A DNA stretch of 64,000 nt from Escherichia phage Pu-Krd-SF3. The stretch lies in sequence record PQ249397; one strand, written 5' to 3'. Positions 41,132-41,785 of the stretch are shown one piece after another. The first letter of the stretch is position 1. The number at the start of each line of letters is the position of its first letter. The notes below the pieces were generated by a model. It saw only the letters and a program-made list of their open reading frames with translations, was not told the origin of the DNA and searched no databases. A program made the position numbers and the translations under genes.

Positions 41132-41334
41132 ATATAATTAATAAGATTTTTGGAATTCAGTACATTAAGGTCACATATAAAGTAACATATAAAGGTCCAT
41201 ATACCGATGAACATGAAGAACCACAAGTTAAGTCTATTATATTAGAAAAGGACCCTAACTGGCCAGTTGAATTTCGTCTTCCTTGCTATGGTCATTGGGC
41301 TGATGTTGAAATTATAAGTATTGAAAATGTCTGA
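41128..41334 (+). CDS. hypothetical protein, 68 aa
   Basis: ATGA overlap with the upstream ORF. Confidence 0.45.
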   Translation: MNIINKIFGIQYIKVTYKVTYKGPYTDEHEEPQVKSIILEKDPNWPVEFRLPCYGHWADVEIISIENV

Positions 41335-41785
41335 GTTAGAGATTAGAAGCAATTTTAGATGGCCATCATGCGCATTAAGTAATTTCGCCCATTGGCCTTT
41401 CGTTATGGATGGTATTCAATTTGGAGGTCTTGAAGGATTCCTCCAAGGATGCAAGGTGAAAAACGTTGAACAACAACGTCGTATATTTGGGTTATCCGGG
41501 CTTGCCGCCCAACAAGCTGGACGAGCTTATGCTAGAGCTCAGGACCGTGGGACCCTCTTCTGGCTTGGAGTTCCGTTTTCAAGATACTCCCCGGCGTGGA
41601 AAGAATTATACACAAATGCATATTTTGAAGCAGCGATCCAAAACAAGGGCTTTCGTGATGCATTACAAGCCTCGAAAGGAAAAGTTTTGAAGCACAGCAT
41701 GGCTAGTGGTCTAACAAAAGATGATACAATACTAACCGAAGCTGAATTTATTGATGTGTTAAACCTATTAAGAGACTCTCTATGA
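41321..41785 (+). CDS. hypothetical protein, 154 aa (possible NADAR/YbiA-like domain)
   Basis: ORF in the 30.3 position; domain assignment is tentative and from memory only. Confidence 0.5.
   Translation: MKMSELEIRSNFRWPSCALSNFAHWPFVMDGIQFGGLEGFLQGCKVKNVEQQRRIFGLSGLAAQQAGRAYARAQDRGTLFWLGVPFSRYSPAWKELYTNAYFEAAIQNKGFRDALQASKGKVLKHSMASGLTKDDTILTEAEFIDVLNLLRDSL

Follow-up and report, generated by a model that had tools for sequence, protein, structure and literature searches.

A small gene upstream of the ADP-ribosyltransferase gene alt is labeled "hypothetical protein" in PQ759884, in the RefSeq T4 entry NP_049816, and in nearly all of the listed examples among 1510 phage records. We asked what this gene encodes in Escherichia phage Pu-Krd-SF3 and whether its product works together with Alt. 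The window we analyzed comprises 64,000 nucleotides of sequence record PQ249397, and all positions below refer to it. A sequence-only reading of this DNA, made by a model, had seen in the product a resemblance to NADAR/YbiA-like domains and had proposed an anti-defense enzyme, possibly paired with Alt.

The window belongs to a T4-type phage. Bases 40200–44600 matched PQ759884, the record of Escherichia phage Pu-Krd-SF4, with 100% identity and unshifted coordinates, and their identity to hundreds of Tequatrovirus genomes was 95–99%. As in T4, the gene order was rIII, 30.9 to 30.4, 30.3, 30.2, 30.1, DNA ligase (gene 30, 42911–44374), alt.1, and alt. The start of alt (44609 or 44612) lay ~2.8 kb downstream of gene 30.3 on the same strand, and its product matched the Pfam family ADPrib_exo_Tox (E = 1.3e-33) and was 98% identical to T4 Alt. 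The sequence-only reading had placed the open reading frame (ORF) in the 30.x cluster a few kilobases upstream of alt, and this description was accurate. Scans of the whole window for tRNAs and Rfam families returned no matches. Promoter-like sites numbered 32, vs. 30.4 in shuffled sequence, and we draw no inference about a promoter belonging to gene 30.3 itself.

The same reading had described a 154-aa ORF at 41321–41785. An ORF with these limits exists on the + strand, and both peptides quoted in that reading lie inside it, but its start was likely set two codons too early. Taking the first possible start (TTG 41321) gives 154 aa, while ATG 41327 gives 152 aa plus the stop codon (41327–41785, +). 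We consider ATG 41327 the likely start rather than the TTG. It is the start annotated both in T4 gene 30.3 (NP_049816, 459 nt) and in PQ759884 (CDS 41327..41785), it reproduces the published numbering of residues E36 and K43, and distant homologues in the family alignment begin 2–4 residues ahead of a conserved (E/D)I-x-S motif. The two extra codons, TTG AAA (41321–41326, +), are probably untranslated. From ATG 41327, the gene overlaps the end of 30.4 (41327–41334), and at its other end, an ATGA read from the sequence (41782–41785, +) combines its TGA stop with the ATG start of 30.2; both arrangements are the same in T4. Homologues were found by tblastn in 1510 phage records, with at least 80% protein coverage in 1504. 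This breadth, the PF08010 score reported below, and the small number of coding changes relative to T4 indicate that the ORF is not a product of chance.

The 152-aa product matched T4 gp30.3 at 149 of 152 positions (98%) without gaps, and T2 gp30.3 was equally close (98%). The gene is the T4 anti-defense gene adfN (gp30.3), the biology of which is already known. Within adfN, there were 12 nucleotide differences from T4, three of which alter an amino acid (Q22H, S67A, and I125M). M125 is both the T2 residue and the family consensus. H22 and A67 differ from the T4 and T2 alleles alike, though the family alignment varies at both sites. AdfN-T4 and AdfN-T2 share with this protein their length (152 aa), their place between 30.4 and 30.2, the residues E36, K43, and H123, and an intact C-terminal helix. 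AdfN-T4 differs from this allele by the three substitutions, and the experimentally measured activity belongs to the T4 and T2 proteins. We also considered an apparent variation at the C-terminus, where tblastn coverage was limited to residues 1–144 in T2, RB7, and others. This was an alignment artifact, as the C-terminus of the translated T2 CDS is identical, like that of T4, to the one encoded here.

T4 and T2 also annotate an out-of-frame ORF, 30.3' (75 aa), within adfN, corresponding to 41463–41690 (+) in the window. The ATG that begins 30.3' in T4 (AAAAATGTTG) reads ACG here (AAAAACGTTG), a change that is synonymous in adfN, and the sole possible start in this phage is TTG 41466 (74 aa). 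This loss of the ATG either weakens the case for 30.3' as a real gene or implies a TTG start in this phage.

Membership in the NADAR fold was visible by some routes and invisible by others. The protein matched the Pfam family PF08010 (Phage_30_3; E = 1.4e-69) over profile positions 1–138 of 138, scoring 232.6 bits where the gathering cutoff is 36. Direct scans were negative for NADAR itself: Pfam gave no PF08719 (NADAR) match at E ≤ 1, NCBIfam and PADLOC gave no NADAR or DarG match, and phmmer against PDB sequences returned a chance-level match alone (E = 0.7). However, when 50 PF08010 family members were scanned singly, 21 also matched PF08719, the best at E = 1.5e-7. A profile built from these 50 sequences had E. 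coli YbiA (2b3w) as its sole PDB match (hmmsearch, E = 0.007), and hhalign of the family profile against YbiA gave a probability of 94.5% over 91 columns. BLASTP against YbiA aligned the motif SNFA-WP..DG....E.F.Q..K with 36% identity over 53 residues, and several of the 107 database homologues were named "YbiA (DUF1768 family)" by the JGI pipeline. The AF2 model showed the alpha+beta arrangement of NADAR domains, a helical core flanked by small beta-hairpins; YbiA was its best Foldseek match among solved structures, and structural alignments with YbiA had 18–20% identity.

Given these profile and fold links, the negative direct scans do not count against NADAR membership, as their sensitivity is limited. 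We conclude that the protein has a predicted NADAR fold, with the link running through intermediate homologues, the family profile, and the modeled structure. The resemblance noted in the sequence-only reading is thereby borne out. That reading had suggested a Pfam/HHpred-type search as one check, and the outcome was divided, with nothing for PF08719 in the direct scan and a connection through intermediates, profile, and structure. Since the relationship is seen only by these latter routes, its rule of rejecting the idea if no profile hit appeared was too strict.

The residues expected of an active enzyme were in place. E36 (GAA, 41432–41434, +), the catalytic glutamate, was invariant in the 50 family members, and K43 (AAG, 41453–41455, +), the phosphate-coordinating lysine, was conserved in at least 90%. 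The two lie seven residues apart and align with the Glu and Lys of YbiA by hmmsearch, hhalign, and BLASTP; the equivalent reference pairs are E43/K50 in the Phytophthora NADAR (PnNADAR) and E88/K95 in the NADAR of E. coli C7 DarG1. A further position distinguishes NADAR types, being Glu in YbiA-type, Asp in DarG1-type, and His in phage gp30.3-type proteins. Here, it is H123 (CAC, 41693–41695, +), which was invariant in 50 of 50 family members and falls at the end of the last strand, E120–122, of the AF2 model. The C-terminal alpha-helix (residues 138–151; 41738–41779, +), which a frameshift removes in RB69, was also present in the model, and no frameshift of the RB69 type was found. The 152 aa make up a core NADAR domain only, without an N-terminal extension. 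As its frame, catalytic residues, and helix are all intact, we infer that the allele is functional, and our confidence in this is high.

What such a protein does has been established for the T-even orthologues. With recombinant chimeras between these phages and RB69, which is sensitive to DarTG1, Johannesman et al. 2025 (PMC11825919) traced the resistance of T2 and T4 to gene 30.3, and they gave gp30.3 the new name adfN, for anti-DarT factor NADAR. In that study, T4 and T2 with adfN deleted could not plaque on DarTG1 cells, and AdfN-T4 supplied in trans fully rescued RB69 (PMC11825919). AdfN-T4 was impaired by E36A, by K43A, and by shortening its C-terminus as the RB69 frameshift does; loss of the last 15 residues lowered activity and correlated with the sensitivity of RB69 to DarTG1 (PMC11825919). 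Purified AdfN stripped ADP-ribose from DarT1-modified DNA in dot blots, with E36A serving as the catalytically inactive in vitro control, and AdfN-T4 did not associate stably with DarT1 (PMC11825919). In independent in vitro work, the T4 NADAR was active on guanosine-ADPr, presented in ScARP-modified oligonucleotides, and not on thymidine-ADPr (Cihlova et al. 2024, PMC11125620), and in a 2026 study it had no activity toward cytidine-ADPr.

Taken with this literature, we are very confident, on grounds of sequence and orthology, that 41327–41785 encodes AdfN, an orphan, single-domain NADAR-type DNA ADP-ribosylglycohydrolase that would remove guanine-linked ADP-ribose to counter DarTG1. When a T-even phage infects a cell with the toxin-antitoxin defense DarTG1, the toxin DarT1 ADP-ribosylates guanines in the phage DNA and blocks its replication. 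AdfN would then hydrolyze the N-glycosidic bond between ADP-ribose and guanine by means of Glu36, Lys43, and His123, restoring the DNA so that the phage could replicate. In effect, AdfN is a phage-borne orphan copy of the host antitoxin DarG1. ADP-ribosylated guanine in RNA or soluble ADP-ribose derivatives may be further substrates. The proposal of an anti-defense enzyme that reverses ADP-ribosylation, made in the sequence-only reading, thus agrees with published experiments on a 98%-identical T4 protein.

Two observations on other records concern this same gene. In the T4-like coliphages SV76, vB_Eco_NR1, UGJNEcP4, and RPN226, the gp30.3 gene calls are just 86–109 aa long; these might reflect RB69-like frameshifts or truncations, from which DarTG1 sensitivity would be predicted, or mistakes in annotation or assembly. 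In addition, the methods of PMC11125620 list a construct "E. coli T4 phage NADAR (gp30.3; residues 1-208)," vs. the 152 aa of T4 gp30.3, which is either a typographical error or a protein that is not the T4 reference. Lengths of 201 aa do occur among metagenomic members of the family.

AdfN can be set against several related systems. The DarG1 antitoxins (the BC4488 family, including Geobacter lovleyi NADAR 8bat and E. coli C7 DarG1) are NADARs associated with DarT1. At the distinguishing position, DarG1 has Asp; it is also extended at its N-terminus (219 aa) and encoded next to a DarT1 toxin, whereas AdfN is an orphan with His123 and no extension (152 aa), and AdfN-T4 cannot stand in for DarG1 in uninfected cells. 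The genes flanking adfN in the window had no Pfam DarT or ART domain, and the sole nearby ART was the unrelated Alt, 2.8 kb away. AdfN-Bas32 and AdfN-Bas60, from T5-like phages and Vequintavirinae, are, like AdfN, phage NADARs that act against DarTG1 and are specific for guanine-modified DNA. However, they belong to other NADAR clades, were acquired independently, need no T-even context, and neutralize DarT1 in uninfected cells as well. T-even phages have a further anti-DarTG1 factor in AdfA (gp61.2), but the protein is unrelated to AdfN; an evolved RB69 AdfA variant associates with DarT1, with no enzymatic reversal, and AdfA is not the primary counter-defense in T4.

The dependence of AdfN on its T-even setting raised a further question about its neighbors. 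AdfN-T4 did not neutralize DarT1 in uninfected E. coli and only weakly rescued the non-T-even phages T5 and Bas25, and the authors therefore proposed that a T-even factor or context is needed for full activity. Such a factor might be encoded in the same conserved block, with the HAD-like gp30.2 or the injected Alt as candidates, but we regard this as a long shot. The gene for gp30.2 is translationally coupled to adfN, its start overlapping the adfN stop; the role of Alt would be one of activation or recruitment, not of reversal. A T4-type phage whose AdfN is 59% identical retained the block 30.3-30.2-30.1-ligase-alt.1-alt, which was absent around homologues at ~40% identity. This pattern is compatible with a T-even factor inside the block, and plain synteny explains it equally well. 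If Alt did prove to be the T-even factor, the pairing seen in the sequence-only reading would be real but would carry another meaning.

That pairing, in its original sense, makes AdfN the partner of the phage ADP-ribosyltransferase Alt (or of ModA/ModB), either reversing or limiting the modification of host proteins, such as that of RNA polymerase alpha at Arg265, or being activated by it. Proximity is its most obvious attraction, since alt lies on the same strand 2.8 kb downstream, an arrangement shared by the T4-type phage with the 59%-identical AdfN. Alt is also T-even-specific and present from injection, as might be expected of the T-even-specific factor that full AdfN-T4 activity needs, and the literature we searched contained no assay of NADARs on arginine-linked ADP-ribose. 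However, alt is transcribed late and its product packaged in virions, whereas in T4 the 30.3 RNA is early, and four genes (30.2, 30.1, ligase, and alt.1) separate the two. Around homologues of 38–41% identity, four neighborhoods contained neither alt nor any ART Pfam domain within 8 kb (tblastn, Pfam records), and the adjacency of adfN and alt is conserved only as part of T4-type synteny across the whole block. Moreover, all measured NADAR activity is on nucleobase-linked ADP-ribose, with the T4 enzyme narrow and acting on G only; the host enzyme DarT1 fully accounts for the adfN deletion phenotype; and Alt, ModA, and ModB go unmentioned in the AdfN paper (PMC11825919). On neighborhood conservation, temporal class, and the literature, we rejected Alt and AdfN as a functional module and consider the pairing highly unlikely.

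Alternatively, AdfN could mainly degrade soluble molecules derived from ADP-ribose, such as immune signaling nucleotides or by-products of RNA repair. A role of this kind was proposed for phage NADARs before any experiments (Iyer et al.), and two distant AdfN homologues do have a Nudix or PRPP synthetase gene in their vicinity. These genes are 3–6 kb away, though, and in two contexts only, while biochemistry and genetics show the T4 protein acting on ADP-ribosylated DNA in a manner that accounts for DarTG1 resistance; no soluble ADP-ribose-derived substrate has been demonstrated. We consider soluble substrates highly unlikely as the main target. We regard as negligible the reading of adfN as an auxiliary metabolic gene whose product, a housekeeping N-glycosidase like YbiA, would act on intermediates of the riboflavin pathway. 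YbiA is the best match among solved structures by both sequence and Foldseek, and the JGI pipeline gives several homologues its name. However, the Glu of the last strand that defines YbiA is His in 50 of 50 family members, the gp30.3 clade has DarG1-type NADARs and not YbiA as its nearest neighbors in the published phylogeny, and the adfN deletion phenotype is defense-specific. YbiA, the founding member of the Pfam NADAR/DUF1768 family, also has a housekeeping role in riboflavin metabolism within a LexA-controlled operon, and it removes C-ADPr, which the T4 enzyme does not.

The assignment of this gene as adfN is mainly of value for annotation. The gene, fold, catalytic residues, substrate, and anti-DarTG1 role were all published in 2023–2026, but the NADAR relationship escapes standard Pfam, NCBIfam, and PADLOC scans. 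From its intact adfN, this phage is predicted to resist DarTG1-carrying E. coli, which bears on host-range prediction for therapeutic T4-like phages. The remote NADAR motif was also recognizable to a first-stage reader model from the sequence alone.

The base composition of adfN stood out from its surroundings. Its GC content was 42.9%, compared to a window mean of 35.9%, placing it in the 97th percentile of 459-nt windows, and its third-position GC was the highest among 13 neighboring genes. We considered this as a sign of horizontal acquisition and found it suggestive only, as amino-acid composition could account for it. The value is compatible with the published idea of an origin from a bacterial antitoxin but is no proof of it.

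More distant relatives occurred in metagenomic contigs. Contigs L005, L006, and L007 carry an AdfN homologue at 39% identity. On a 308-kb phage-like contig, a Nudix gene and a Thg1-like gene are located ~3 kb away from the homologue; on contig L002, another homologue has a GGDEF-domain gene at a distance of 2 kb and a PRPP synthetase gene at ~6 kb. These are at most loose contexts of NAD or nucleotide metabolism, unlike the T4 arrangement.

Gene 30.2 (41782–42645, +) drew attention in its own right. A classic HAD-phosphatase motif I (LTDIDGVC) stands at the beginning of its product, and a YIDDL motif follows further on. Among PHROGs, the product matched 420, which is of unknown function, and had a weak match to one for polynucleotide kinase. 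The region is labeled "5' nucleotidase" in one related genome, and no sequence relative was found in the PDB. Most differences from T4 fell in the His/Pro/Tyr-rich C-terminal tail (42496–42645, +; NPYHPYYTHPYNPYYTHPYHMNPFH), which has a 10-residue insertion relative to T4 (287 vs. 278 aa), while the remainder was near-identical. The tail looks like a variable region of short repeats. We considered gp30.2 as a conserved partner of AdfN, but no 30.2 homologue lay within 8 kb of distant AdfN homologues, and the idea found no support past T4-type synteny.

Upstream of these genes, the strongest terminator-like hairpin of the region lay at 39732–39753 (+), just past 30.9. It has a 9-bp stem with five GC pairs (GAGGACTCC-TTCG-GGAGTCCTT) followed by a T-run. 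Promoter-like sites follow this hairpin, ahead of 30.8 and 30.7, including an 11/12 match at 40140–40169. The sequence here suggests a possible transcription-unit boundary upstream of genes 30.8–30.3. Past alt, at 46664–47049 (+), there are two small ORFs, as in T4. The T4 annotation names its pair alt.-1 and alt.-2 and explains them by an old duplication in which the first part of alt was copied. With the window Alt as the query, tblastn matched these partial copies in T4 at 55–61% identity.
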